Positions 1,447-23,506 of a stretch of DNA of 64,000 nt are shown one piece after another; position 1 is the first letter of the stretch; every line of letters starts with the position of its first letter. The stretch comes from a virus. The position numbers and the translations under genes were made by a program. The DNA lies in the IMG/VR virus record IMGVR_UViG_3300046744_000223, positions 108,941 to 172,940 of that record. The stretch is one strand, 5' to 3'. Under the pieces are notes generated by a model. The model searched no databases and was not told the origin of the DNA. It saw only the letters and a list, made by a program, of their open reading frames with translations.

Positions 1447-2278
1447 TTATATAACTTGTTATGTAATTATCTATATCCTTAGTTGGCATCCAACCAAGTA
1501 TTTCATTAGCAAGTGTATCTTCACAAAGAGTTACCAATGCTTCACCTGGCTTATCATCTTCATAAACAATATCATCATAGTTGAACATATCTGCTATGTC
1601 TTTAACAGAGTAGTTTTTACCTCTACCAAGTTCAAAGTCATACCCATATGCCCCTTGTTCCATAATCTTTACTAATGCGTCTACGATATCGTCAATATGA
1701 GTAAAGTCTCTACGTTTAGTTCCATCACCAAAAATAGTAAGCGACTTCCCATCTTCAATTGCCTTTTCCCATTTACCAATTAAAGTACAATACCCACCAT
1801 CTTTTAGATGATGTGGTCCATATACATTGTAAAATCGTGTAATTGATGATTTCAACTCATAATGTTTCTGATAAAGTGAAATGATGTCTTCACCCACATC
1901 TTTTGAGAATGTGTATGGATTCTTAAATCTACCACTATGTTTTGATGATGAACCAGCGTATATGATTGGTACGTTATTATTAGCACACCAATCTACCAAG
2001 TTCAGAGTTCCATTTGCATTGGTAGTAAAATATTCTTTGGGTAATTTGAATGATGGTTGGATACGGGCAATTGCTGCCAAGTGAAATACAACATCAACAT
2101 CCATAAACTCAGTAATGTTTCTGAGGTCGTGGTTTAGATACTTACATCCTTTTTGATGATTTTGTACATTACCAGTATAATAATTGTCGATAGATACTAC
2201 ATTGTGTCCATCTTTCAATAATCTTTTGATGAGGTTTGTTCCTACAAAACCTGCACCACCTGTAACTAATATTTTCAT
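1412..2278 (-). CDS. NAD-dependent nucleotide-sugar epimerase/dehydratase (extended SDR)
   Basis: [13 protein letters not shown], YxxxK (YTFSK), RFYNVYGP, RDFTHIDD; start placed at 2278 (TAATG overlap). Confidence 0.9.
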   Translation of the reverse strand: MKILVTGGAGFVGTNLIKRLLKDGHNVVSIDNYYTGNVQNHQKGCKYLNHDLRNITEFMDVDVVFHLAAIARIQPSFKLPKEYFTTNANGTLNLVDWCANNNVPIIYAGSSSKHSGRFKNPYTFSKDVGEDIISLYQKHYELKSSITRFYNVYGPHHLKDGGYCTLIGKWEKAIEDGKSLTIFGDGTKRRDFTHIDDIVDALVKIMEQGAYGYDFELGRGKNYSVKDIADMFNYDDIVYEDDKPGEALVTLCEDTLANEILGWMPTKDIDNYITSYINEKEHNIHTGN

Positions 2279-2913
2279 TATCCTAATCCTTTCCAAGTTG
2301 CACCATTACCAGTATAGTAGTGATTTACTTCAACTTTTGGTGTATATAAATATGATTTACCATCTTTTAAAATATCAATTGCCCAATATCTATCTTCTTT
2401 TGTAGATAATTCCTCATCAAACGGAGTTTCTATCAAATCAGACTTATTGTAGAAACAAAACGCATTATGTAAAAATGGTCTATCTTCAATAGTAGAATGC
2501 ATATTAACCACCTCACTATCTACAAAATGAGACCATATATATCTCTTGTTAATTTTCTTTCCACGATATATTGGAATTTGATTACCAAATACTGCTGAAT
2601 GAAACTTTAGTAATGATTGGACCGATTTCAAATCCATCTTAGTAATTTGAGAGTGTGCTGATAGTATCAATATAATATCATTACTACACATATTGACTGC
2701 CACATTCAACGATTTACCTGGTGTATAGTTTTCTATATTAGAGGTTATTATATTGAGTCGTGTATTGAATAGTGTAACTACATCCATAGAATCATCAGTA
2801 GAGTTGTTATCCATCACAATCACCTCTGCATTAGGAATGTGGTCACATATAGATTGTAGTGTAAACCCAATATATTCACCCTCATTTCTATTTCTAACTA
2901 TGATACTTATCAT
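2278..2913 (-). CDS. Family 2 glycosyltransferase
   Basis: [26 protein letters not shown] motif. Confidence 0.8.
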
Positions 2914-3716
2914 TTAAATATCCTCGATAATGTTGTATAATCAATAGCTTGTGCTGGGTCACTTATAGACATATCTGGATTGGGGTGTGATTCTATAATC
3001 AACCCATCAGCACCAATGGCCATTGCAGCTTTAGATACCGGCTCTACAAAATTACGATATCCAGTTGAATGACTTGGGTCATATATGATTGGGATGTTAG
3101 TAAACTCTTTCAAAGCAGGAATCATCATAAGGTCAGGTGCCCAACGTGTTGTTGGGTGTATGTGTCTATAAGATGGCATTCCAACTACACCTCTAAGACA
3201 TATAGCAACATTTCTATTACCACCTACTAAGATTCGTTCAACTGCGCCTAAGATTTCATCAAGAGTTCCCCAAGTACCTCGTTTGAGTAATACTGGAGTA
3301 TCTTGCTTTCCAAGAGCGTCTAATAGTGTATAGTTCTGAAAATTACGAGTTCCTATTTGAAATACATCGGCAACCTCACCAACTTCATCAATCATACTCG
3401 CATCCATTACTTCAGTAACAATTGGGAGTCCAGATTCCTTCTTAGCAATCGCCAACAACTCAAGACCTTCTTTACGAAGACCCTCTTTCCACCCATTAGT
3501 TTCTTTTGTGATTGGGAATGTACATGGTTTGTAAGCACCTGCTCTTAGAGCATCCGCGCCACATCTTTTCATATCTTTTGCAATCTCAATGATTGACTCA
3601 CCCTCAACTGAACAAGGACCTGCAATCTTGAAGTAATCCCAATTGAAGGTTTCGTTTGGGTCGATTGAAATGTTTAACTTACCTTGGTCTTTTAGTGACT
3701 GAATGTATTCGTTCAT
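2910..3716 (-). CDS. DAHP synthase (class I-beta)-like PEP aldolase, catalytic core only
   Basis: [51 protein letters not shown]; KPRT replaced by KPCT. Confidence 0.85.
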
Positions 3717-4255
3717 TTGTAATATTGTTTTACTTTTTCTAAATCATCTTCAGTATGGATATCAGTAGCAGTTTCCTTTACACATCCGATTCGGTAACTA
3801 ACTTTACCTTGTTTGAGTAAGTCGTACTTGAATAATCTCATTGCACCACTCCTACGATATGTGTCATCTACCGTAATGATATCATCATACTTATTGTCAA
3901 TCATATAGTCAAGACACTCATCAAGAGTGTTGACTCGATTGGGGTTATCTGGTTGTAATCCAACTACAATATCATACTCTTCTTTGATTTCATTGATGAT
4001 GTGTTCATACACATCTACGACCTCAACATCCCCACACAAATCAGCAGGCCTCTTGTGGAATCTTACTTCGTATTTATTACAAATCTCCTCAACAACATCA
4101 CTCTCAGATGATACGATAACCTCTACATGGTATTGACTTGCGTTTGCGTAATCAACTGAATGTAGGAACATGGGTTTACCATCAATCTCTCTAATGTTCT
4201 TGTGTTTTAGTCTTTTAGAATCCAGCTTTGCTGGAATTATTGCTAGTACTCTCAT
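3713..4255 (-). CDS. CMP-ulosonic acid synthetase (NeuA/KdsB-family cytidylyltransferase)
   Basis: [32 protein letters not shown]. Confidence 0.85.
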
Positions 4256-5175
4256 AATTTATCTATACTCCATTTATATGCTTTGGTCTGACCTTGTATG
4301 GTCATTCCTCCTGTATGTGGTGTAAATATACAATTTAATTTTGAATTTTCCAAATTAAAGAATGGTGATTTAGATGGGTCACCAAACTCATTTTCGATAA
4401 CATCAGTACCATACCCCCACAACTTACACTCGTGTAGTGCCTTTATGATATCAGTTTCATTTACAATCTCACCACGGGATGTATTTACCAAGAACTTAAC
4501 ACCACGTGAAAGTAAATCATAATCAATCATATGTCGTGTTTCGTTTGTGACGTGTACGTGAAGTGATACTGCGTCACATATGTCAAACAACTCTTCCAAT
4601 GTGTCAATATTAGACTCATCTGAATATGGGTCGTGGATGTAAACCTCAGCATCAAACGCTCTACAAAACTTAGCCATCATCTTACCCAATCTACCATAAC
4701 CAACGATGCCAACTTTGTAGTCTTTCATTTGCTGGCCTACAAATGGTAGGTAATCCCAACTTTTATCTCGTTTGGTCACATTGTTTGACATTGTGATGTT
4801 TCTCATCAAGTCAAGGAGTATCCCAAACGCCAATTCTGAGGTAGATGGTAGTTGATTGATTAGTTCGAAGTCGTTTTTATGACATTGGATTTCAATACCC
4901 ACCGATTCACAATATTCTAAGTCAATGTGATTTAGTCCGGTAGATGCGGTATTGATAATACGAACCATAGTATTCCGTAACAACCCCTCATCAATTTTGT
5001 AACTTTGTTGATTTGGATTGCAGAATATAGTATCAATTGGGTTGTTAAGTAATAATTCTCTAACTTGGTGCCGTGTCCCATATTCTAACATAAAAACATC
5101 ACCTTTTGAATCTAACAACTCAACTACCCCATCCAAATGGGTTACGGGAGTAACAACTGCAATCTTATTTTTCAT
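4252..5175 (-). CDS. D-isomer-specific 2-hydroxyacid dehydrogenase
   Basis: VGIVGYGRLG, LVNTSRGEIV, TDVIENE, FTPHTGG. Confidence 0.85.
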   Translation of the reverse strand: MKNKIAVVTPVTHLDGVVELLDSKGDVFMLEYGTRHQVRELLLNNPIDTIFCNPNQQSYKIDEGLLRNTMVRIINTASTGLNHIDLEYCESVGIEIQCHKNDFELINQLPSTSELAFGILLDLMRNITMSNNVTKRDKSWDYLPFVGQQMKDYKVGIVGYGRLGKMMAKFCRAFDAEVYIHDPYSDESNIDTLEELFDICDAVSLHVHVTNETRHMIDYDLLSRGVKFLVNTSRGEIVNETDIIKALHECKLWGYGTDVIENEFGDPSKSPFFNLENSKLNCIFTPHTGGMTIQGQTKAYKWSIDKL

Positions 5176-5828
5176 TACATTGATTGTAAATCTTTCTCAA
5201 ATAACTCAATACCCGTTGTAGTCAATGCGTGTTCGAACATTTGTTCAAGTACTTTCAATGGTACTGTGATTACATCAGCTCCTGCTTTTGCTGCTTTGAC
5301 AACGTGCATTGGATGTCTTACACTTGAAACCATAATGTTAGTGTCAAACGAATATCTCTCGTTAAAGGTTTTTACCAACTCACCAATAAACAACATAGCA
5401 TCATGACCCGTGTCATCAAGTCTACCAACTAACGGACAAATGTAAGTGGAATTAACATTAGCACATAGTATAGCCTGATTATGTGAGAATATCAGATGCA
5501 TATTTGTTTTATCACCATTACGTGTTGCAGAATTACAGGCGTCAATACCTGCAGGTGAGAATGGAATTTTAAAAACCAAATCAATGTCATTTGATTTTGC
5601 TTTTAATCGTTCGATATTAGATAAGATTTCATCCTTAGTAGTACCCCATGCTTCAACGTGAATTTCACCAACTGGCATAACTCCTCTGATTTTTTTAATC
5701 ATATCGATGTCGTCATCCATACCATGTCGTTTCGCCAAAGTAGGGTTCGTAGTAACTCCGGCTAATATACCCATATCTGAGTATTTTTGAATTGAACTTA
5801 ATTCTAAAGTGTCTAAAAATACTTTCAT
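5175..5828 (-). CDS. Transaldolase/fructose-6-phosphate aldolase family protein (TalC-like)
   Basis: FLDT, GVTTNPTL, Schiff-base VFKIP, PLVGRLDD, SVRHP, GADVITVP. Confidence 0.9.
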   Translation of the reverse strand: MKVFLDTLELSSIQKYSDMGILAGVTTNPTLAKRHGMDDDIDMIKKIRGVMPVGEIHVEAWGTTKDEILSNIERLKAKSNDIDLVFKIPFSPAGIDACNSATRNGDKTNMHLIFSHNQAILCANVNSTYICPLVGRLDDTGHDAMLFIGELVKTFNERYSFDTNIMVSSVRHPMHVVKAAKAGADVITVPLKVLEQMFEHALTTTGIELFEKDLQSM

Positions 5829-5839
5829 AATTTTACGTT

Positions 5840-6310
5840 TTATTTAATTGATTTTAATGTTACTTTTAACTGACCTTTACGTCTATCCGTAGTAAACTTT
5901 TGAGATACCATCTCGTAGTTACAGGTTATGCCATACGTATGTGCTATTCTATAATGATTTGATTTACCATTGATTCCACCATGCCACTTTGAACAAAAGT
6001 AACCAAACGACTCCTCATTAAAAACTCGCTTGTGTGTTGGGTCTGCTAATGCCATTGCAGATGCTTCATGAGGTACTACGATATCTATCGTACCACCTGG
6101 TTTTAGGATTCGCCACAACTCATTCATAACAAAAATAATATTATCAATGTGTTCTAATATCATAATTGCTTTGATTTCACTAACCGTATTATCATCGAGT
6201 GGAATTCCCTTTTCGATATCACAACAAATATCTGGATTTACTGATGGGTCAATATCAACATTTAAGAATCCTGGAAACTTTTCTTTGTATGAACCTAAGT
6301 TTAATTTCAT
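5840..6310 (-). CDS. SAM-dependent methyltransferase (type 11-like)
   Basis: LNLGS..FLNVD, ILEH, RILKPGG, DPTH. Confidence 0.75.
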   Translation of the reverse strand: MKLNLGSYKEKFPGFLNVDIDPSVNPDICCDIEKGIPLDDNTVSEIKAIMILEHIDNIIFVMNELWRILKPGGTIDIVVPHEASAMALADPTHKRVFNEESFGYFCSKWHGGINGKSNHYRIAHTYGITCNYEMVSQKFTTDRRKGQLKVTLKSIK

Positions 6311-6906
6311 AATTTTATTTTTTTTAGTGATAACAAATGATATGGATTACTATGTGCTTTTCTACCTGGCTGATACCACTCATCTACAACGTCAAATCCA
6401 TTCTCGATTAGTTGACTACTGAGTAACTCTCCATCAATTTCCCAATGTTTATGATGTTCACCTTTTAGACTTTTTGGTGTTTTTTGCATATGTGGGTGTG
6501 AAACTATCAAATGACCACCTAACTCTAATAACTCATAAAACTTCATACAAGTTTCAATTAGAGGATTCTCTAAGTGTTCTAATGTTTCTAAACTAACGAT
6601 GACATCAAACTTACCATTCACATTATTCTGAAAATCAGATTCTAAATCAATTACATCGTATGTTATATTTTCAGCACCCCAATACGTTCTACAATATTCT
6701 AATGCTTCTTCTGAGTTATCCAATGATAATACTGACTTGGCACTTTGTGCTAAAATATTAGAACCATACCCAATCCCACAAGCTGCATCTAATACGACAT
6801 CACCATCACTAACAAACTTATTAGCAAACCGATACCTTTCTACGTGTTTTGGTTCAATTTCTTGAATATTTTTACCTATTTGGCGTTCGCCATTGAATCC
6901 ATCCAT
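6307..6906 (-). CDS. Class I SAM-dependent methyltransferase
   Basis: HVERY, VLDAACGIGYG, FDVIVSLETLEH. Confidence 0.85.
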   Translation of the reverse strand: MDGFNGERQIGKNIQEIEPKHVERYRFANKFVSDGDVVLDAACGIGYGSNILAQSAKSVLSLDNSEEALEYCRTYWGAENITYDVIDLESDFQNNVNGKFDVIVSLETLEHLENPLIETCMKFYELLELGGHLIVSHPHMQKTPKSLKGEHHKHWEIDGELLSSQLIENGFDVVDEWYQPGRKAHSNPYHLLSLKKIKL

Positions 6907-6915
6907 AATTTTATT

Positions 6916-7224
6916 TTATATTTCTTCTATTCTTTTTGTTTTGTCACAAATCAATAAGTCGTATGGTGGTTTCTCACCTACACTCAGGTGGTGATATTTA
7001 CATCCCCAATCATCCAATTGCTTCTTAGTTACATCATACCAATCAATTCCCGTAGTACTTCCACGAGCGGTCCAATAGGTTATAGTATGACCTTCATCAT
7101 ACAATATACGAATTTTTTCTATATTTTCCAAATTTGGAATAGCTTCTGAGTAATCTGGATTTATATAAGTTCTATTTTCATAAAAACATATGGTCTCATC
7201 TATATCAACGTATATATTCATCAT
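6916..7224 (-). CDS. Small HAD-superfamily phosphatase (candidate ulosonate-phosphate phosphatase)
   Basis: YVDIDETI DxD motif, WTARG, KP.YDLLICDK. Confidence 0.8.
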   Translation of the reverse strand: MMNIYVDIDETICFYENRTYINPDYSEAIPNLENIEKIRILYDEGHTITYWTARGSTTGIDWYDVTKKQLDDWGCKYHHLSVGEKPPYDLLICDKTKRIEEI

Positions 7225-8033
7225 CTAATAACTTTACATATATTATTTAACATTGTTTCAAAATCACTTAATTTAATTGAGCTTGTTCCATCCGATAGTG
7301 CGTTATCTGGATCATCATGTACTTCTAAGAACATACCATCTACACCTACGGCTGCAGCAGCCTTTGCTAATGGTTCTATAAAATGTTTATTAGACCCACT
7401 GCTACCACCAGAACACCCTTTTTGAACTGCATGAGTTGCATCAAATATAACGGGAGCGTATTCTCTCATAGTTACTAAGTTTCTCATGTCCACTACATAG
7501 TCACCATACCCAAAGGTATTTCCACGTTCGGTTAGAACAACTTTGTTATTATCAGATGATACTACTTTATCAACCACCCTCTCCATATCCAATCCATTTA
7601 CAAATTGTGCTTTTTTAATATTTACTGGAAGGTTTGTTTTTGCAGAAGCCACCAATAAATCAGTTTGTCTACATAAAAATGCTGGTATTTGTATTAGGTC
7701 AATTGAATCTTTTAATACATCAGCTTGCCATGGTTCGTGTATGTCAGTAGTTACTGGAATATCTAATTCAGTACGGATTTTATTAAATATACGAGATGCT
7801 TCTTCAATAGAAACTCCTCTGTAGTTTTGTAACCGAGTTCGATTTGCTTTATCAAAAGATGCTTTAAAAATAAAAGGAATACCCAACTTAGAAGTAATAC
7901 GTTTTAACTCACGTGCCATATGTAAGGTATGTTCTTCACTTTCTATGACACATGGGCCGGATATCAATACAAATGGCAATGATTCGCCAAATGTTATACC
8001 ATCTCTTATTGTAACTGATTTAATTTTTTTCAT
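7221..8033 (-). CDS. kdsA: KDO8P synthase (3-deoxy-D-manno-octulosonate 8-phosphate synthase)
   Basis: GPCVIES, FKASFDKANRT, QIPAFLCRQTDLL, NIKKAQF, ERGNTFGY, FDATHAVQ, FLEVH..PDNALSDG. Confidence 0.95.
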   Translation of the reverse strand: MKKIKSVTIRDGITFGESLPFVLISGPCVIESEEHTLHMARELKRITSKLGIPFIFKASFDKANRTRLQNYRGVSIEEASRIFNKIRTELDIPVTTDIHEPWQADVLKDSIDLIQIPAFLCRQTDLLVASAKTNLPVNIKKAQFVNGLDMERVVDKVVSSDNNKVVLTERGNTFGYGDYVVDMRNLVTMREYAPVIFDATHAVQKGCSGGSSGSNKHFIEPLAKAAAAVGVDGMFLEVHDDPDNALSDGTSSIKLSDFETMLNNICKVIR

Positions 8034-8673
8034 TTGCTAAACATTCTGCTATTTTAAAATCACTTGGTGTATCAATGTCCCATGCTTCCAACATATCAAC
8101 TGTTTTAATATATGGGTTGAAGCCAATTCTTCTTTTGTGTTTCTTATACATATCCTTCGAGAATATATATAATCCGGAGTTTTCAACAATAATTGGCTTT
8201 AAGTCTTGAGTACGACTAATAGTTGAAGACATATTATAATTTAAGGGATTACCATCATACCAACAAAAATTGTTTACTTCATATGCTAAAAATGCCGAAT
8301 CGTATTCGTTTGACTTTATTTTGTCTATCATATCTACTATGGTAGATTGTTTTACGAATGGGGAAGTTACTGATAAAAATACAATATAGTCTGTATTTAT
8401 ATCATCTATAACCGAATCCAATATATCGTTAAATGTAACATAGTCCCCATCAAACTTGGTATCTCTTTTTAAGAATGTATAGTCTAAACTTGGATTTATG
8501 TAATCCACAACAGTGTCATCACTACAATACAAAAGTGTATCACTAATATCAGAAATTCCTGCTGCCTTGTCCACGCATATATTAACTAACGGATTACTAT
8601 TAAGTGTCTTTATACTTTTTTGTGGTAATCGCTTACTATTTAGTCTAACTGTTATGTATGCTGTAAACTTCAT
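8020..8673 (-). CDS. CMP-ulosonic acid synthetase (NeuA-like cytidylyltransferase)
   Basis: RLNSKRLPQKS, TSPF, RTQDL, ENSGLYIF, DIDTPSDF. Confidence 0.88.
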   Translation of the reverse strand: MKFTAYITVRLNSKRLPQKSIKTLNSNPLVNICVDKAAGISDISDTLLYCSDDTVVDYINPSLDYTFLKRDTKFDGDYVTFNDILDSVIDDINTDYIVFLSVTSPFVKQSTIVDMIDKIKSNEYDSAFLAYEVNNFCWYDGNPLNYNMSSTISRTQDLKPIIVENSGLYIFSKDMYKKHKRRIGFNPYIKTVDMLEAWDIDTPSDFKIAECLANEKN

Positions 8674-9386
8674 TTTTTTCTTGTTCTTAGGTTATCATAT
8701 TCGAATGGATTTAGAAGCATTATTTTATTTTCAGAAATCCAGTTTTGTACAAAGTCCATTTGTCTAAATCTATGCTTATCACCTTTAAAGTAATCTTTTC
8801 GATTCTTTTTGTGTTCAGCATCTTCTTCTTTATTGTAAAAGTTTAAAGCCCTGTCATCCTCACCACCTTCTAGGTAAAAGGTATGTCCTATAATTGTTAT
8901 TTTAGAAAAGTTAATAATTGCCCTATCTAATGTAATTAAACCAGTACCAACTCCTATGAACTTTCCTAAAGCTTGATTTTTTTTATACTTATGTCTGAAC
9001 TCCTTACCACCATAGTGTTTCGTTAAAAACCCCCAAGTATCACTATGTACATTTACATTATCAAACTCATGGTATCTATGACTCATCTCGTGACCTACAT
9101 CATCTTTTCTTGGCCAAATTGTAAGCGGTTCGGATTTGATTGGATGAAAATAATCCCATCTATAATTGCCAGTAGTAGACCAAATATCTATTTTCCTACC
9201 TGTGTGTTGATACATACCATCGAAAAAACATTTATTTACTCTAATTACAGTTTTAAACTTATCAATATATTTACCAAAATTATAACAATTCAAAGATGGG
9301 CTTGTACCAACTACTATTACATCGGTTTGTGGTTCAAATGTCTCAAAGTAGTTGTCTAACTTTTTAATATTGTCCAAAATCACCAC
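8670..9386 (-). CDS. GT29 sialyltransferase-like glycosyltransferase
   Basis: L-motif-like VIVVGTSPSL..GKYIDKFKTVIRVN..TGRKID and S-motif-like GTGLITL..IIGHTF. Confidence 0.7.
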   Translation of the reverse strand: MVILDNIKKLDNYFETFEPQTDVIVVGTSPSLNCYNFGKYIDKFKTVIRVNKCFFDGMYQHTGRKIDIWSTTGNYRWDYFHPIKSEPLTIWPRKDDVGHEMSHRYHEFDNVNVHSDTWGFLTKHYGGKEFRHKYKKNQALGKFIGVGTGLITLDRAIINFSKITIIGHTFYLEGGEDDRALNFYNKEEDAEHKKNRKDYFKGDKHRFRQMDFVQNWISENKIMLLNPFEYDNLRTRKK

Positions 9387-9922
9387 ACCATTACTTTGTT
9401 ATTCTCAATAAGGGTATTTACATAATCTATTTCAAGATTCCAACTATGATTGCCAGGTATATCTGATGACCCCTCTACTCCCCAATAATGATTAGTCTTT
9501 CCAAAATCAAATCCAACCAAGTTTAACACCTCATATGTATCTAACAAATAGTTAATTGTTAGAATGCCAGTAGACATTTTTTTAGAACCTAATTTGAAAT
9601 CGGATATGTGGTAATCAAATCCATCATAGTTACTCTTTATATCCTCCAATCTACCAACTCGCTTATCAGTATTAGTAATCGTGGTAGTTTTAATTAAGTT
9701 TGGGTGTTGGTTTTTTATACTCTCTATGTTATTTACATAGTAGTTTCTACTATCGGTAGTAAGTGCATTGTTAAGTATCCAATGAGTACATTTGTTACCT
9801 ATATAATCTTCAAATCCACGTACTCTGAATCTATTGAATCTATAAACGTGGTCGTATGAATCAATCAGACTACCATGCTTTTGGGTTGTGTCGGCATTAC
9901 CTACTAAGATACATTTATTCAT
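9380..9922 (-). CDS. Minimal GT29 sialyltransferase-like glycosyltransferase
   Basis: Sialylmotif L (CILVGN..IDSYDHVYRFN..IGNKCT), S (STGILTI..VGFD), III (HYW) and VS (HSWNLE). Confidence 0.8.
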   Translation of the reverse strand: MNKCILVGNADTTQKHGSLIDSYDHVYRFNRFRVRGFEDYIGNKCTHWILNNALTTDSRNYYVNNIESIKNQHPNLIKTTTITNTDKRVGRLEDIKSNYDGFDYHISDFKLGSKKMSTGILTINYLLDTYEVLNLVGFDFGKTNHYWGVEGSSDIPGNHSWNLEIDYVNTLIENNKVMVW

Positions 9923-10599
9923 TTCTTACCTGTGTGCTTTCCGGTTTGTAAAAAATATTCATTGTCTCTACTATCACCTTTCAAAAAGTGATACTCAAAT
10001 CCAAGTTTCCACATAACATAGTCAAAACTTAATTGGTCTCTACGTGAGTTATACTTTATTTCATCCCACCATGCTTCCATAGATTCAATGACGTGTTCAT
10101 CATTATGATTTCTTAATATAATTGGATTTGTAGCTAACCCATTATTTTGTGGATATCCCTCATCTAAGTATCTCTGAACTTGGGTATACATGGTTTGTGG
10201 ATTGTCCTTGTAATTACCACCATTAGACTTACCCAAACTCATTATTGCCTCATACTCTTTGTAAATACAATCTCGTGGGTCCAGTCTTGTTTGATTATGG
10301 TCAAATACCTGATACGGGTGTTTGTTTACCAATGGTGTAAAATCTTTTCTAACCAATATATTACCATCAATCCATAACGAACAATCGTATTCTGATAAAT
10401 ATCTATGTGGTAATATTTTGTATTTTTTAGCGTTACGATTTGGGTCTGAATATATTGGTGTAGATTTAATAATCTTCCAAGTATCCGATTTTATATCCAT
10501 ATCAGTAAAGCATATATAATCAACACCATCTATTATTTGTTGATTTTCATGTAGATTATCATACCCACCAAAGATTGAAGTATAAACGGCTATTTTCAT
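9919..10599 (-). CDS. DUF616 (TOD1/MUCI70-like) glycosyltransferase
   Basis: VYTSIFGGYD, YICFTD, KILPHRYL, SLWIDGN, RDCIYKE, SRRDQLSF. Confidence 0.85.
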   Translation of the reverse strand: MKIAVYTSIFGGYDNLHENQQIIDGVDYICFTDMDIKSDTWKIIKSTPIYSDPNRNAKKYKILPHRYLSEYDCSLWIDGNILVRKDFTPLVNKHPYQVFDHNQTRLDPRDCIYKEYEAIMSLGKSNGGNYKDNPQTMYTQVQRYLDEGYPQNNGLATNPIILRNHNDEHVIESMEAWWDEIKYNSRRDQLSFDYVMWKLGFEYHFLKGDSRDNEYFLQTGKHTGKK

Positions 10600-11444
10600 A
10601 TGTAATGCTCACTTCTTACTAAGTTAGAGCCAAGATTGGGTCTAGCTACTGTGTATGTTGGTGTATAATTTGCAATCGTATCATTAACACCGGTCTGATT
10701 ACCAACGTTAAATTTAGCCTTGCTTTTGATATATAATTGAATACGTGTGTCAACGTGTCTGAGGTCTAAACACTTTTTATATTTCAATCCAAATTGATTT
10801 TTTGTAGTCCAATAAAACATTGGTAATTTATATTCATTGATTTTTGATTGGATTTTCTCAACTCCAGTGCCATCAAATCTATTTGATATCAATAGAGTAC
10901 CAAAATCACCATTAACGTGTTCTCTAATAATAGAATTACCCAACTCTCTTTCAGAATCAGACCAATAAACTTCCGGCTCAATATCGTCAAAAGAATCAAA
11001 TTGCCAAAACTTTAATATTTCTTCCATAAGTGGGATTTTATAAACACCTAAGTCATCATATATTCTATAATGGTCATTGAATACCTCCCCTTCAAATGAA
11101 TCTACAAATCCATCTATATATGGGTTGTTGTCAAAAATAGTATGAACCACTTGAAACGGGTCTGACCATGATGACCAATTTTGCTCTAAGTGACCAAATA
11201 ACTCTCTTAACAATTTTGGTGATGGTATCCAAACCTTACAATCAGGATATTTTTCTTTTAATTTACGTGGAAACGCAGAGATAATTCCCCAATCCCCAAC
11301 ACCAAAACAAGTTCTTAGGATTACAAAGTTTTTACCTTCCAAGTATTCATCAGGAATATAGGAAGGGTCACTTAAAGGAAACCCTAACTTATCAACCTCT
11401 TGTATAGGAAGTACTTTATTATCGAATGTTCTCCAAAATACCAT
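10596..11444 (-). CDS. GT9 (heptosyltransferase)-like glycosyltransferase
   Basis: LRTCFGVGDWGIISAFPRKLKEKYPDCKV and NNPYID resemble the GT9 N-terminus; start at 11444 (TAATG overlap). Confidence 0.55.
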   Translation of the reverse strand: MVFWRTFDNKVLPIQEVDKLGFPLSDPSYIPDEYLEGKNFVILRTCFGVGDWGIISAFPRKLKEKYPDCKVWIPSPKLLRELFGHLEQNWSSWSDPFQVVHTIFDNNPYIDGFVDSFEGEVFNDHYRIYDDLGVYKIPLMEEILKFWQFDSFDDIEPEVYWSDSERELGNSIIREHVNGDFGTLLISNRFDGTGVEKIQSKINEYKLPMFYWTTKNQFGLKYKKCLDLRHVDTRIQLYIKSKAKFNVGNQTGVNDTIANYTPTYTVARPNLGSNLVRSEHYI

Positions 11445-12280
11445 TATGAAACTGCCCTTCCTTCCATACCTTCCCAATCCTTATCAGTTCTAACCTCTTG
11501 ATTAGTTTTCTCAGTAGCCGATAGGACATTGTTTGTTGTGTTTAATAATTCCGTAAGTTTCAACATAGCTGATAAATCTTTAGGGAAACAATGTCCACCA
11601 AATCCTAAATCACCATCAGGACCAGGAACAGCCCAATGTGATTTACCTAACCTATCATCATATGTCGCATATTCTACAACCTTATCATAGTCCAATGATA
11701 GTTTATCACATACTTGATAAATCTCATTTGCAAAAGAAACTTTTGTAGCTAAGAACGTATTAGTTACATACTTTACCATTTCTGCGTGTGTAGAGCCAGT
11801 CTTTATGATTGGTGTGGTAGGAAAAACTAAACGATAGATTTGTTTAAGTGGAGTGGTTCCTTTACGTGGGCCCCCTAAGATAATCTTTGATTGGTTCTCA
11901 AAGTCTTGTACTGCGTTTGCTTCGGTTAAGAATTCCGGATTGAACACAATTGTGATACTCTTAAAGTTATTGTTAAACATCTCGGTTGTAGTTGGTGGAA
12001 TTGTAGATTTGATAACCACAACAACATCCTTACCTACGTTATTGATTTGAGACAATACCGATTCCACAATTGAAATGTCACACGACCCATCAACTCTCTT
12101 CATTGGAGTGGGTACACATACAAATACAACATCCGAAGCTTCGACTACCTCTTTTAGGGTATCCGTAGTTCTTTTAGACCCATCAAGGTCATAGGTTAAA
12201 ACGCTAAAATAGTTTTTAAACTTTTGGTAAATGGCATTTCCTACAAAGCCTTGACCCACTATTCCAATATTATATTTCAT
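11444..12280 (-). CDS. UDP-glucose/GDP-mannose dehydrogenase family protein, short form
   Basis: GIVGQGFVG, FVCVPTP, IKSTIPP, FNPEFL, AEMVKY..NTFLA, GFGGHCFPKD. Confidence 0.9.
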   Translation of the reverse strand: MKYNIGIVGQGFVGNAIYQKFKNYFSVLTYDLDGSKRTTDTLKEVVEASDVVFVCVPTPMKRVDGSCDISIVESVLSQINNVGKDVVVVIKSTIPPTTTEMFNNNFKSITIVFNPEFLTEANAVQDFENQSKIILGGPRKGTTPLKQIYRLVFPTTPIIKTGSTHAEMVKYVTNTFLATKVSFANEIYQVCDKLSLDYDKVVEYATYDDRLGKSHWAVPGPDGDLGFGGHCFPKDLSAMLKLTELLNTTNNVLSATEKTNQEVRTDKDWEGMEGRAVS

Positions 12281-21398: not shown

Positions 21399-22319
21399 TT
21401 ACTTTCCTATTGTTATTAATATATTTAACATCATCGCCATTACGTTGATTTCCTTATCAACTACCATTGCGTCTTTGTACTGACCATCTGCGATGTTTAA
21501 GATAGTCTGACCCACTTTACCACTTGCGTAGTTATCTACCTCGTCATAAAGAGAACGATACAATGGTGTAAAATCCTTTAATTTTGAATCATTGATGATT
21601 TGTCTGATTTCCGTGAATTGTTCTTTGATGTCACCACTCTTTTGTAAAACCTTAATTACATTATCGGTGTAATTAGCTTGTACAGTAGATGTGGTATCAA
21701 TCTTTAACTCACCCTTGACAACTTGACGTTGTGCTGCGTTCAGTACTCTACGAATATCAGGATATCCACTATTCACCAACACAGCAAGGTCTTCGTTGTT
21801 AAACGTAACACTTTCTTCATTTAAGATTTGGTGTAAACGTTTAGCTACTTCCTTCTTTGATGGAGGTGCGATAGCAAATGTCTGACATCTTGATTGGATA
21901 GGGTCAATGACCTTCTCCACGTAATTACACGTTAATATGAATCGTGTTGATTTACTGAAAGTCTCCATTAAGTTACGGAGTGCTGCTTGTGCGTTTGGTG
22001 TCAAATAATCAGACTCATCTAAGATTACAACTTTCCACTTACGGAATCCCATAGATGATGCGAACCCACGAATCTTATCACGAACTGCATCAACCGAGTT
22101 TTCATCCGAAGCGTTGATGTACATAACATCACAATCAATTTGGTTTGTAATGATTTTAGCGAGAGTGGTTTTACCAGTACCTGCTACTCCATAAAGTAAT
22201 AGATGTGGTACATCATCATTCTCGATGTAAATCTTTACCTTCTCAAGGATATGGTCGTTACCTACATAACCTTCTAATGTGTCTGGTCGATACTTCTCAA
22301 CCCATAGTGAATTACTCAT
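21399..22319 (-). CDS. Clamp loader ATPase subunit (RFC/T4 gp44-like)
   Basis: LWVEKYRP, GVAGTGKTT, INASD, ILDESD, SRC motif. Confidence 0.95.
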   Translation of the reverse strand: MSNSLWVEKYRPDTLEGYVGNDHILEKVKIYIENDDVPHLLLYGVAGTGKTTLAKIITNQIDCDVMYINASDENSVDAVRDKIRGFASSMGFRKWKVVILDESDYLTPNAQAALRNLMETFSKSTRFILTCNYVEKVIDPIQSRCQTFAIAPPSKKEVAKRLHQILNEESVTFNNEDLAVLVNSGYPDIRRVLNAAQRQVVKGELKIDTTSTVQANYTDNVIKVLQKSGDIKEQFTEIRQIINDSKLKDFTPLYRSLYDEVDNYASGKVGQTILNIADGQYKDAMVVDKEINVMAMMLNILITIGK

Positions 22320-23506
22320 CGTCCTACTTCTTTTAAGTATTGTTTTTTTGCTTCTTCCCAAGACATACCAATGATGTCAAGATAAAATAATGGTTCTGGT
22401 TTAATACGACCCTCATCAAATAGTTTAGAGTATCGTTTAATAGCCTTCTTCTTCCACCACCTCATAGTGTAATCATCACCTTCCTCAAACTTCTTCTTTA
22501 GTTTCAATTCACTTTCGTCAATCTCATTACGAAGAAACTCATTTCCATTATCATACATCATAGCGAAGTATACACCTCGTTTGAATCCATGCATATAATG
22601 ACTTTGTTTAATACCCAATTCTTTGAATATCATTGATAGAATGCGTTGCTTTACACCTGATACAGGTCCAGCAATCCCATCTTTCTGAGTTGTGTGTCTA
22701 GCATACTCATCTGGCTGGTTTTCTTTTAACCATTGATGCCATACATCATAAACTGAATCATCTGGCTTGGTAGCAACTTTACCAGCTGACTCACCCAATG
22801 TTTTGAAATGTGGAATACCATTATATTGGGAGTGGATACCATATAGTGAAGTAGTACCTACTGCAATAAGTTCTTGTCCGTACTTTTCTTTCCAATGTTC
22901 ACGAACGACTGGAGATGTAGTCATACAGGCTACTAACTTACCACCTAAGAAGTTATATCCTAATGGTTGAGTACACACAATAGTACTTGCTATTGTAGTG
23001 TGATTCAATCTACCATCTTGGAATTTATTCTCCTTAGTCCATCCTATATAGTTATCCCTAACTCCCAATGAAGTGACATCAGAACCCAAAGAAACCAACC
23101 CCAACATCTTACCACTTACTCGGTCTTTAATGTACATCTTTACATTACGACCTGGATTAGCAGTGAATGACATTGTATGGATTAACTTACGGATTTCAGT
23201 CCAACGAGTGGATTCTTTGGAGTCAGTTACAATCTCAACGTATGGGTCAAGGTCCTCAATCTCTTTGATTGTTTGGTCCTTGTTCGTAATGTCAGTAGGT
23301 GACCATAGTTGGTCAATATACTGAGCCATTGCGGCTTTCCGTTTCATTGAAGTTGGTAAGTCTGAATTCCACTCATCCCACTTTTTGTAAAGCGTCTGCT
23401 CTTCTACTGACATTGATGAAAGGTAGTCCATATTCTCAATGAACTTTTCTTTCTCAACATTATAGTCAAACACCGGCTTCGTTGGTTCTGTGTCCCAAAA
23501 CTGCAT
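22316..23506 (-). CDS. DUF4338 (Druantia DruA-like) protein
   Basis: PGRN..IKDRVSGKMLG..SLGS, RDNYIGW, PLGYNFLGGKL, TTSLYG. Confidence 0.7.
   Translation of the reverse strand: MQFWDTEPTKPVFDYNVEKEKFIENMDYLSSMSVEEQTLYKKWDEWNSDLPTSMKRKAAMAQYIDQLWSPTDITNKDQTIKEIEDLDPYVEIVTDSKESTRWTEIRKLIHTMSFTANPGRNVKMYIKDRVSGKMLGLVSLGSDVTSLGVRDNYIGWTKENKFQDGRLNHTTIASTIVCTQPLGYNFLGGKLVACMTTSPVVREHWKEKYGQELIAVGTTSLYGIHSQYNGIPHFKTLGESAGKVATKPDDSVYDVWHQWLKENQPDEYARHTTQKDGIAGPVSGVKQRILSMIFKELGIKQSHYMHGFKRGVYFAMMYDNGNEFLRNEIDESELKLKKKFEEGDDYTMRWWKKKAIKRYSKLFDEGRIKPEPLFYLDIIGMSWEEAKKQYLKEVGR

Follow-up and report, generated by a model that had tools for sequence, protein, structure and literature searches.

Which function is served, in a phage, by a homologue of 3-deoxy-D-arabinoheptulosonate 7-phosphate (DAHP) synthase that stands next to a glycosyltransferase and a cytidylyltransferase? 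The question is raised by five genes at positions 2278-5828 of a stretch of viral DNA, called here the window, which has 64,000 nucleotides and forms the last 64 kb (positions 108,941 to 172,940) of the 172,940-bp IMG/VR myovirus record IMGVR_UViG_3300046744_000223, estimated to be 90% complete. All five lie on the minus strand and encode, in the order of transcription, a variant transaldolase/fructose-6-phosphate aldolase (FSA)-type aldolase (5175-5828, 217 aa), a SerA-like, D-isomer-specific 2-hydroxyacid dehydrogenase (2HADH; 4252-5175, 307 aa), a minimal cytidylyltransferase (CT; 3713-4255, 180 aa), a DAHP-synthase derivative (DAHPSl; 2910-3716, 268 aa) and a GT2-type glycosyltransferase (GT2; 2278-2913, 211 aa). 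Successive genes overlap by 4, 4, 4 and 1 nt, counted from the GT2 end.

The original prediction took the five coupled genes for one pathway, the enzymes of which were repurposed to make and activate with cytidine monophosphate (CMP) an unusual 3-deoxy-ulosonate. The reading frames and the motifs KPCT, CPLVGR and NMHL on which it was built were all found as described, and comparative evidence supports such repurposing for the cassette of synthase, CT and GT2, but not for the transaldolase. Similarly, the five genes are coupled by physical overlap in this phage and in its closest relatives, but the synteny that is conserved comprises four of them and the transaldolase belongs elsewhere. The explanation that we favour, and hold with moderate confidence, is that the four-gene cassette of 2HADH, CT, DAHPSl and a GT2 devoid of the DxD motif would make, CMP-activate and transfer a free 3-deoxy-2-ulosonic acid, and that the transaldolase belongs to the adjacent branch for 3-deoxy-D-manno-oct-2-ulosonic acid (Kdo).

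None of the five proteins reaches an NCBIfam equivalog cut-off. As judged from alignments, each cassette component misses a feature that defines its family, i.e., the erythrose 4-phosphate (E4P) site and the usual context in DAHPSl, the architecture and the acidic motif in CT, and the DxD motif in GT2. Chance as a source of the motif and of the gene order is ruled out, since KPCT is invariant in 129 family members and the order recurs in dozens of loci.

The Conserved Cassette in Viruses and Cells

The scan of viral contigs with DAHPSl returned 11 loci with 62-84% identity. 2HADH and CT are present upstream of DAHPSl in all of them, and GT2 is located directly downstream in eight, about 4 kb away in two and is absent in one; no phosphatase is conserved in the cassette core of these viral relatives. 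Species-representative genomes were scanned with a degenerate DNA pattern, which gave 11 matches, eight of which are true DAHPSl loci. The remaining three (Gemmatimonadales, Limibaculum and Bacillota) are chance matches, where no DAHPSl is encoded. A search of five host genomes for the tail sheath gave no homologue.

In a Synechococcus single-cell genome the cassette is placed in a low-GC island of a 201-kb contig and consists of GT2, 2HADH, CT and DAHPSl, accompanied by an MsbA-type ABC exporter and a LIC12162-family transferase. A Pelagibacteraceae (SAR11) single-cell genome contains GT2, a CT::2HADH fusion of 570 aa, an enolase-superfamily acid-sugar dehydratase, a second 2HADH, DAHPSl and an ABC exporter. 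The gene set is radical-SAM/SPASM, DAHPSl, NeuB, GT2 and two CTs in Nitrospirae, radical-SAM/SPASM, DAHPSl and a GT2::CT-like fusion in Patescibacteria, and DAHPSl with a GT2 fusion in Elusimicrobia. Finally, 5 of 200 further picocyanobacterial genomes (Prochlorococcus-type, 1.5-1.9 Mb) encode a KPLTFP variant of DAHPSl together with CT, a GT2::CT-like fusion and a GFO/IDH/MocA oxidoreductase; one of the Prochlorococcus-type copies is on a contig of 1.93 Mb. In phages and in six cellular lineages alike, the constant core combines DAHPSl, a single GT2 subfamily and a CTP_transf_3 domain; in Elusimicrobia this domain resides on a GT2 nearby that does bear DxD. The cassettes usually include a redox partner, the family of which varies.

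Both the Synechococcus and the SAR11-type cassettes are flanked by MsbA-type ABC exporters and LIC12162-family O-antigen transferases (L035:7160-9037, L036:3167-4960); the latter family takes its name from a Leptospira O-antigen gene. Exporters and O-antigen-type transferases beside the cellular copies indicate a surface glycan, and on the same ground a role of the cassette in DNA modification was rejected.

The GenBank phage collection contains no annotated relative of the cassette, and the protein matches come from bacterial-looking contigs. A match of 125 nt to Synechococcus phage Bellamy was dismissed, since it falls within an unrelated heptose-type island. The search of the literature (on phage DAHP synthase/cytidylyltransferase, heptulosonic acid, sialic acid synthase and auxiliary metabolic genes, AMGs) did not reveal any published description of the cassette. 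Glycosyltransferase-rich hypervariable clusters were described in pelagimyophages, in a report that mentions neither Kdo nor DAHP synthase (PMC7029224).

A DAHP Synthase Derivative without the Phosphate Site

With Pfam DAHP_synth_1 the score of DAHPSl is 171 bits (cut-off 25.5). The protein stays below the NCBIfam cut-offs for DAHP synthases (NF006421, 264.5 vs. 335; TIGR01361, 235.7 vs. 267.75) and obtains 91.5 bits with the KdsA model, for which the cut-off is 242. Its closest solved proteins, with about 45% identity, are the type-Ibeta DAHP synthases of A. pernix (1vs1, E 1.6e-54) and P. furiosus (1zco, 2.6e-52). DAHPSl aligns end to end with the unregulated, 262-aa enzyme of P. furiosus, in agreement with the earlier claim that it has no regulatory domain. 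It shares with these unregulated enzymes the core-only TIM barrel of approximately 262-276 aa and identical ligands of the metal and of phosphoenolpyruvate (PEP). The motifs GPCSVE, DPSH, ESH, SD, KP, GTRN, KRG and LRG all have aligned counterparts in 1vs1 and 1zco; the metal ligands are Cys, His, Glu, and Asp, and those of PEP are Lys of KP, Arg of GxRN, KRG and Arg of RG. Both sets are invariant throughout the DAHPSl clade and the canonical sequences.

The differences lie elsewhere. Where the unregulated enzymes have KPRTS and RGIR, DAHPSl has KPCTF and RGVV, and it carries two 6-residue insertions in comparison with the solved type-Ibeta enzymes, one after KPCTFP and the other after RGV, i.e., in the beta2-alpha2 and beta6-alpha6 loops. 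Hence the reported replacement of KPR(S/T) by KPCT with an insertion was confirmed, and the second insertion, which had been missed, was added to it. KPCT(F/Y) is present in 129 of 129 close family members (other short forms read KP[C/L/A]T[F/Y]P), whereas canonical relatives have KPR(T/S)S. By motif counting, 34 of 38 canonical sequences have the second Arg of RGIR, and not one of the 16 clade members has it; we take this residue, with some uncertainty, to be a part of the E4P-phosphate site. For a type-Ibeta enzyme, P55, R56, and T57 were reported as E4P-binding residues and beta2-alpha2 and beta6-alpha6 as active-site loops (PMC12202928), and these are the same two loops that carry the insertions in DAHPSl. 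The alignments thus describe an enzyme that is devoid of the E4P-phosphate site and retains the metal and PEP chemistry.

In a quick maximum-likelihood tree all variant sequences form one clade (SH-aLRT 93), which is nested within type-Ibeta DAHP synthases and separate from the unregulated enzymes, and in which phage, SAR11 and Synechococcus sequences are intermixed. The automatic search for specificity-determining columns gave none at the thresholds used, because the clade is heterogeneous. The gene is distributed like an accessory one, with copies found in only 6 of 201 picocyanobacterial genomes, and in the loci examined it is always placed within glycan clusters, a further difference from the unregulated enzymes. 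The statement that no other shikimate genes accompany it also holds, since a search of all 172,940 bp of the record gave no dehydroquinate (DHQ) synthase, and the only other member there of DAHP_synth_1 is a canonical KdsA.

Exchange of the Synthase with NeuB

What reaction could then be catalyzed by such an enzyme? An indication comes from cassettes in which the neighbours are the same and the synthase is not. The metagenome was scanned with a GT2 alignment, the best 80 of at least 480 loci were considered, and the synthase was classed as the gene directly upstream of GT2 in the 65 viral/metagenomic loci that have at least 900 nt of upstream sequence. This gene encodes DAHPSl in 25 loci, a NeuB-family protein without the SAF domain in 31 and other proteins in 9. 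The NeuB-family proteins of these sister cassettes have 265-270 aa and score 170-202 bits with PF03102. Both types of cassette contain the same 2HADH and short CT, with similar identity to the window proteins; in the NeuB-type locus L050, for instance, 2HADH is 79%, CT 67% and GT2 72% identical to those of the window.

The exchange must have happened repeatedly. In the tree of 59 GT2 sequences the type of synthase switches at least 13 times, and at least six of these switches are forced by branches with SH-aLRT of at least 95. Sister pairs of GT2 that differ in the type of synthase are only 0.07-0.15 substitutions per site apart. Such repeated swapping of two unrelated PEP-condensing enzymes within one cassette argues strongly, on comparative grounds, that DAHPSl takes the role of a NeuB-type synthase. 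NeuB-type synthases use unphosphorylated sugars as substrate and do not require a phosphatase, which matches both the lost phosphate site and the cassette core without a phosphatase. It is therefore most likely, as far as homology and gene context can tell, that DAHPSl performs NeuB-type chemistry, the condensation of PEP with an unphosphorylated aldose to a free 3-deoxy-2-ulosonic acid. The exchange, the filled-in phosphate pocket and the absence of SAF are compatible with an acid of C5-C7 to C9. The claim that this enzyme is not an ordinary metabolic gene is thus upheld, with the E4P-phosphate ligands lost, GT2 and CT linked to it and its slot swapped with NeuB.

After some sister cassettes of the NeuB type comes a gene for a DegT/DnrJ aminotransferase (L070:5659-6789), so that at least some versions may adjoin amino-sugar steps.

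The Partner Enzymes

CT matches PF02348 (CTP_transf_3) with 63.5 bits (cut-off 22.6) over profile positions 2-128 of 217 only and is far below the cut-off of all NCBIfam equivalogs. The P-loop IIPAKxDSxRLxxKN and the motif QPDxPxR are invariant in 12 orthologues. The AlphaFold2 (AF2) model (pLDDT 93.8) was compared with solved folds, and up to rank 39 the matches listed are all synthetases of CMP-Neu5Ac, CMP-Pse, CMP-Kdn or CMP-Kdo (TMq 0.75-0.89; 0.53-0.75 when the TM-score is normalised by target length), ahead of IspD and TarI. The model is consistent with a minimal enzyme of the NeuA/KdsB fold and a putative catalyst.

GT2 (PF00535, Glycos_transf_2, 62 bits vs. cut-off 23.3) has S-A-H in the place of DxD, as in the alignments LSAHS is the counterpart of VDSDD in TarS and of LDCDM and LDSDD in K4CP; across the subfamily the replacement is S-A/G-H. 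The E-D catalytic-base motif (EDRxW) is kept and aligns to AED of TarS. Residues S85, H87, E173, D174, R175, and W177 are invariant in 13 orthologues, while control GT2s from the same loci retain DxD in the form of DADD or DADE. The AF2 model (pLDDT 92.9) has the GT-A/GT2 fold, with AvpGT, TarS, K4CP, WrtF and SpsA as top matches. In all lineages examined, the GT2 beside DAHPSl belongs to a single orthologous subfamily. A glycosyltransferase that appears to lack the diphosphate/metal site and to have kept the base would fit a monophosphate, i.e., CMP, donor.

In Prochlorococcus-type genomes and Patescibacteria, GT2 of the SAH type is fused to a CTP_transf_3-like domain with a degenerate P-loop (L044:6224-7618, L045:10991-12343, L033:6448-7803). 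The fused domain may be a nucleotide-sugar-binding module and not an enzyme.

2HADH matches PF02826 (2-Hacid_dh_C, 130.7 bits) and PF00389 (2-Hacid_dh, 26 bits), both above cut-off. GxGxxG and the Arg/Glu/His triad align with phosphoglycerate dehydrogenase (PGDH) of P. horikoshii, 1wwk (GIVGYGRLG, NTSRG, DVIENE, TPHTG), and the Arg of PGDH GRAG is replaced by Thr (NTAS). The best NCBIfam model is that of PGDH (TIGR01327, 128 bits vs. cut-off 454), none of the characterised specificities (PGDH, GhrA/B, LdhD, PdxB) can be assigned, and the ESM Atlas gives only generic names for the dehydrogenase. Among the 20 longer homologues of 2HADH at least 11 are CT::2HADH fusions of approximately 550-590 aa (P0285, P0287, P0289, P0290, P0292, P0295, P0297-P0301; also L036:6290-8002). 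Methyltransferase::2HADH fusions of approximately 700 aa (P0291, P0293) are rarer. We know of no characterised fusion of either kind.

The Transaldolase and the Kdo Branch

Is the transaldolase, which overlaps the dehydrogenase gene by a single nucleotide, a part of the same pathway? It scores 130.4 bits with PF00923 (TAL_FSA) and 181.9 bits with TIGR00875, the cut-off of which is 245.95. Its best solved match is the T. maritima transaldolase 1vpx (E 2e-47). In the comparison with 1vpx, 3r8r and 3s0c, the Schiff-base Lys (FKIP), Glu (HVE) and the phosphate-binding Arg (VGR, SVRHP) are kept, while VSAE is changed to IHVE, NVTL to NMHL and SPFVGR to CPLVGR; these variants are invariant in nine relatives. 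The canonical active-site Thr (NxT) and Ser/Phe (SPF), or the Tyr of FSA, are thus not present. With cyanophage transaldolases (TalC, type 3B) the protein shares about 39% identity, and the Lys, Glu and phosphate-binding Arg residues are kept. It differs from TalC and FSA in His for the Thr of NxT and Cys and Leu for the Ser and Phe of SPFVGR, and moreover its gene does not stand alone but is linked to KdsA and a mini-HAD.

This linkage was revealed by a scan with the transaldolase, which found nine loci with 79-88% identity. The order KdsA, mini-HAD, transaldolase occurs in seven of them, and the other two are incomplete (one has the HAD end only, the other starts inside the transaldolase). 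In the window the corresponding genes are also on the minus strand, i.e., a canonical KdsA (7221-8033; NF003543, 355.9 bits vs. cut-off 242) and a mini-HAD phosphatase (6916-7224) with a weak HAD match, kept beside KdsA in seven relatives and as a fragment in the eighth. Two SAM-dependent methyltransferases of Pfam methyltransferase families (5840-6906) have been inserted here between the mini-HAD and the transaldolase. They are absent from the KdsA, HAD and transaldolase loci of the relatives. One near-identical metagenome locus has the full order KdsA, HAD, the two methyltransferases, transaldolase, 2HADH, CT, DAHPSl, and GT2.

KdsA, the mini-HAD (about 101 aa) and the variant transaldolase also occur as a free-standing three-gene cassette in another phage type (loci L016-L022). 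In locus L017 the trio is located between a PolB gene and two unannotated reading frames followed by Hsp20 and Cpn60, in a different phage type and with no glycan island nearby.

In the DAHPSl cassettes, the transaldolase is absent within 6 kb in all 11 viral loci and from the whole of five 50-65 kb contigs, and it was found in 2 of 39 metagenomic cassettes with enough flanking sequence. Its assignment to the DAHPSl pathway was therefore abandoned, and the idea that it supplies E4P to DAHPSl was rejected on synteny. We place it in the Kdo branch because of its synteny with KdsA and the mini-HAD. A KdsD/SIS domain was found neither in the phage nor in the free-standing cassette; the transaldolase may supply arabinose-5-phosphate or otherwise feed Kdo synthesis.

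Proposed Pathway and Known Systems

The functional unit, transcribed in the order 2HADH, CT, DAHPSl, GT2, may work as follows. DAHPSl would join PEP and an unphosphorylated aldose or aldehyde-acid into a free 3-deoxy-2-ulosonic acid, so that a phosphatase would not be needed. Judging from its fold, motifs and context, CT would convert this acid into the CMP-sugar, and GT2 would transfer the sugar from the monophosphate donor to the glycan built by the island of approximately 18 kb in which the cassette is located. 2HADH would act on the same small molecule as CT, in a tailoring or precursor step; it might form the precursor, work at the distal hydroxy-acid end of a ulosaric acid or reduce the product.

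The same logic, in which PEP is condensed with a sugar that has no phosphate, a PF02348 enzyme activates the product with CMP and transfer follows, is used by the NeuB/NeuA/sialyltransferase pathways for N-acetylneuraminic (Neu5Ac), pseudaminic (Pse) and legionaminic (Leg) acids and for Kdn. The likeness extends to the NeuB-family synthase in the DAHPSl slot of 31 of 65 sister cassettes and to the fold of CT, which is closest to the CMP-Neu5Ac, CMP-Pse and CMP-Kdn synthetases. The cassette differs in a synthase from the DAHP synthase/Kdo 8-phosphate synthase family (the NeuBs of the sister cassettes being devoid of SAF), in the 180-aa minimal form of CT with DID changed to DIH/NIH, in a DxD-less GT2 where sialyltransferase systems use GT29, 38, 42, 52, or 80, and in an obligate 2HADH beside a core without a hydrolysing epimerase or an aminotransferase. 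With the Kdo pathway (KdsD, KdsA, KdsC, KdsB, and WaaA) it shares a synthase of the KdsA superfamily and a CMP-activated product. A complete canonical set of KdsA, HAD and CT for that pathway is present 3.2 kb away in the same island, whereas DAHPSl has lost the phosphate ligands, the core has no phosphatase, and CT and the glycosyltransferase are of other families or forms.

Three structural-genomics proteins of Leptospira borgpetersenii should be mentioned in this context. Among solved proteins, the SAF-less NeuB from the sister cassettes matches best the 290-aa "sialic acid synthetase" 6ncs (E 8e-34), and the cytidylyltransferase 6oew and the 228-aa glycosyltransferase 6p61 are among the fold/sequence matches of CT and GT2. 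Their resemblance to the three enzymes of the NeuB-type cassette is given as a lead only; to our knowledge the functions of all three are uncharacterised.

Objections and Alternative Explanations

Several points weigh against the proposed synthesis and transfer of a free ulosonic acid. The exchange with NeuB demonstrates interchangeability within the cassette and not strictly an identical product. Many members of the DAHPSl clade have a new Lys or Arg in the beta2-alpha2 loop, 4-5 residues further downstream, as FPYR (Nitrospirae, Prochlorococcus-type, P0140), YPVR/YPVK (SAR11, Synechococcus) or FPITK (phage), with the Patescibacteria sequence lacking it, and to judge by its position this residue could bind an anion (phosphate or carboxylate) at a shifted site. 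CT is devoid of the approximately 25-30 residues that form the dimerisation/sugar arm of NeuA/KdsB. The acidic metal-binding motif is D-I-D in NeuA and V-D-T in KdsB; the C-terminal D-I-D is D-I-H in the window CT and N-I-H in most orthologues, with an invariant His. We know of no precedent for GT2 enzymes that use CMP donors. The dehydrogenase is awkward in the scheme as well, since a D-2-hydroxyacid dehydrogenase normally acts on the 2-oxo-acid group that is needed for CMP activation. In other cassettes the redox partner is GFO/IDH/MocA, radical-SAM/SPASM or none identified, so that the redox step may not be equivalent everywhere.

The recurring basic residue, 4-5 positions after the Thr of KPxT, is the starting point for the alternative that survives best, although we consider it unlikely. 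DAHPSl would use a phosphorylated or otherwise anionic aldose of another length, such as a pentose phosphate, a hexose phosphate or an aldehyde-acid of the uronic type, the anion being held by new basic residues in the inserted loops, and the product would be CMP-activated either after a host or island phosphatase has trimmed the ulosonate phosphate or as a ulosaric diacid. The heptulosaric (Dha-like) acid suggested in the original prediction would fall under this alternative. The distal hydroxy-acid end of a diacid would be a natural substrate for 2HADH, although by our own stereochemical reasoning this end is L-configured in ulosaric acids of the D-series and thus ill-suited to a D-specific dehydrogenase. 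The SAR11-type cassette has an acid-sugar dehydratase, for which the best NCBIfam match is talarate/galactarate dehydratase, but with 126 bits against a cut-off of 500. The island offers further sugar chemistry, as it encodes KdsA, methyltransferases, Ugd, an epimerase and GT29- and TOD1/MUCI70-like proteins. On the other side, the NeuB-family replacements are established users of unphosphorylated substrates, the cassette has no conserved phosphatase, and the Patescibacteria sequence manages without the basic residue.

A bolder and quite doubtful version names the diacid. The cassette would make and CMP-activate a ulosaric 3-deoxy sugar, namely 3-deoxy-lyxo-heptulosaric acid (Dha) or a C6 homologue, from an aldehyde-acid, and 2HADH would work on the distal hydroxy-acid end. 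In 2012 the synthesis of sugars of this class was still listed as unknown for rhamnogalacturonan II (RG-II) of plants and for prasinophyte scales (PMC3355719). If true, this would provide the first biosynthetic route and activated form for Dha-type sugars, with enzymes from abundant marine phages, SAR11 and picocyanobacteria.

One may also ask whether a glycosyl donor is made at all. In this alternative, which we regard as improbable, 2HADH would reduce the synthase product to a 3-deoxy-aldonic acid, CT would add CMP, and the result would be a non-glycosidic acidic substituent, in analogy to pairs of a reductase and a cytidylyltransferase such as TarI/TarJ and Bcs1. Reduction of a 2-oxo acid is indeed the normal reaction of the family and the catalytic triad of 2HADH is intact, the CT::2HADH fusions resemble the reductase-cytidylyltransferase fusions known from CDP-alditol pathways, and CT deviates from the canonical catalytic motif of NeuA/KdsB. 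Nevertheless, the folds nearest to CT all belong to CMP-ulosonate synthetases, with IspD and TarI ranked lower, the universal partner is a GT-A glycosyltransferase with an intact base and not a TagF- or LicD-type phosphotransferase, and the Prochlorococcus-type, Nitrospirae and Patescibacteria cassettes have no 2HADH.

That these are ordinary auxiliary metabolic genes, with DAHPSl as an E4P-dependent DAHP synthase for aromatic amino acids, the transaldolase as its source of E4P and the neighbours unrelated, is highly improbable: DAHPSl does have about 45% identity to true DAHP synthases with the catalytic residues retained, transaldolase is common in cyanophages (501 phage records match) and an AroE-like gene adjoins DAHPSl in one Prochlorococcus-type locus, but throughout the clade the E4P-phosphate site has lost both Arg and its Ser, the protein is below all equivalog cut-offs for DAHP synthases, it is strictly linked to one GT2 subfamily and CT in unrelated lineages, NeuB repeatedly takes its place, nearly all cassettes are without the transaldolase, no DHQ synthase was found in the phage and the gene is an accessory one (6 of 201 picocyanobacterial genomes).

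The Phage and Its Glycan Island

The record encodes a tail sheath, a family-B DNA polymerase, ribonucleotide reductase and a DnaB-type helicase. The polymerase shares 48.5% identity with its counterpart in Microcystis phage Mel-JY01 and about 32% with those of T4-like cyanophages, and CsgG, the marker of most pelagimyophages, was not found in this phage. In the first 18 kb of the window every gene is on the minus strand and the region forms a glycan island. The scan for promoters and terminators gave no signal above the shuffled expectation. Apart from the genes described above, the island encodes GT1/GT4-type, GT2, GT29-like and TOD1/MUCI70-like proteins, a short Ugd, an SDR epimerase and a Nol-like carbamoyltransferase. 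Next to KdsA lies a full-length cytidylyltransferase of the NeuA/KdsB type (8020-8673, minus strand; CTP_transf_3, 64.6 bits, profile positions 4-205 of 217) with an intact DID.

Beyond this KdsA/cytidylyltransferase pair, the stretch 8670-10599 encodes two proteins of the sialyltransferase family GT29 and one of the TOD1/MUCI70-like kind; both families are mainly eukaryotic. At 11444-12280 the window contains a 278-aa homologue of UDP-glucose/GDP-mannose dehydrogenases, with a partial N-terminal and the central domain and without the C-terminal UDP-binding domain, and similar short Ugd-like forms (approximately 280-293 aa) are present in relatives L009 and L013. Further away, at 22316-23506, a 396-aa protein similar to the Druantia defence protein DruA (PF14236, E 7e-24) adjoins a clamp-loader-like AAA+ gene.

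Implications

If the proposed function of the cassette is correct, it would represent a third evolutionary solution for CMP-activated ulosonic acids, besides the KdsA-type and NeuB-type synthases, in which a DAHP synthase minus its phosphate site became interchangeable with NeuB. It would also add three unusual enzyme forms, i.e., a DAHP synthase without the phosphate site, a CMP-sugar synthetase of only 180 aa and a GT2 without the metal site and with a probable monophosphate donor. A correction of annotation would follow, as many marine metagenomic proteins are named "3-deoxy-7-phosphoheptulonate synthase" and surveys of viral AMGs would count them among aromatic-amino-acid genes. Marine phages have the cassette in common with SAR11-type, Synechococcus and Prochlorococcus-type genomes, where it lies in hypervariable glycan islands. 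The sharing of this cassette between phages and hosts thus bears on phage-host surface recognition in the most abundant cells of the ocean.

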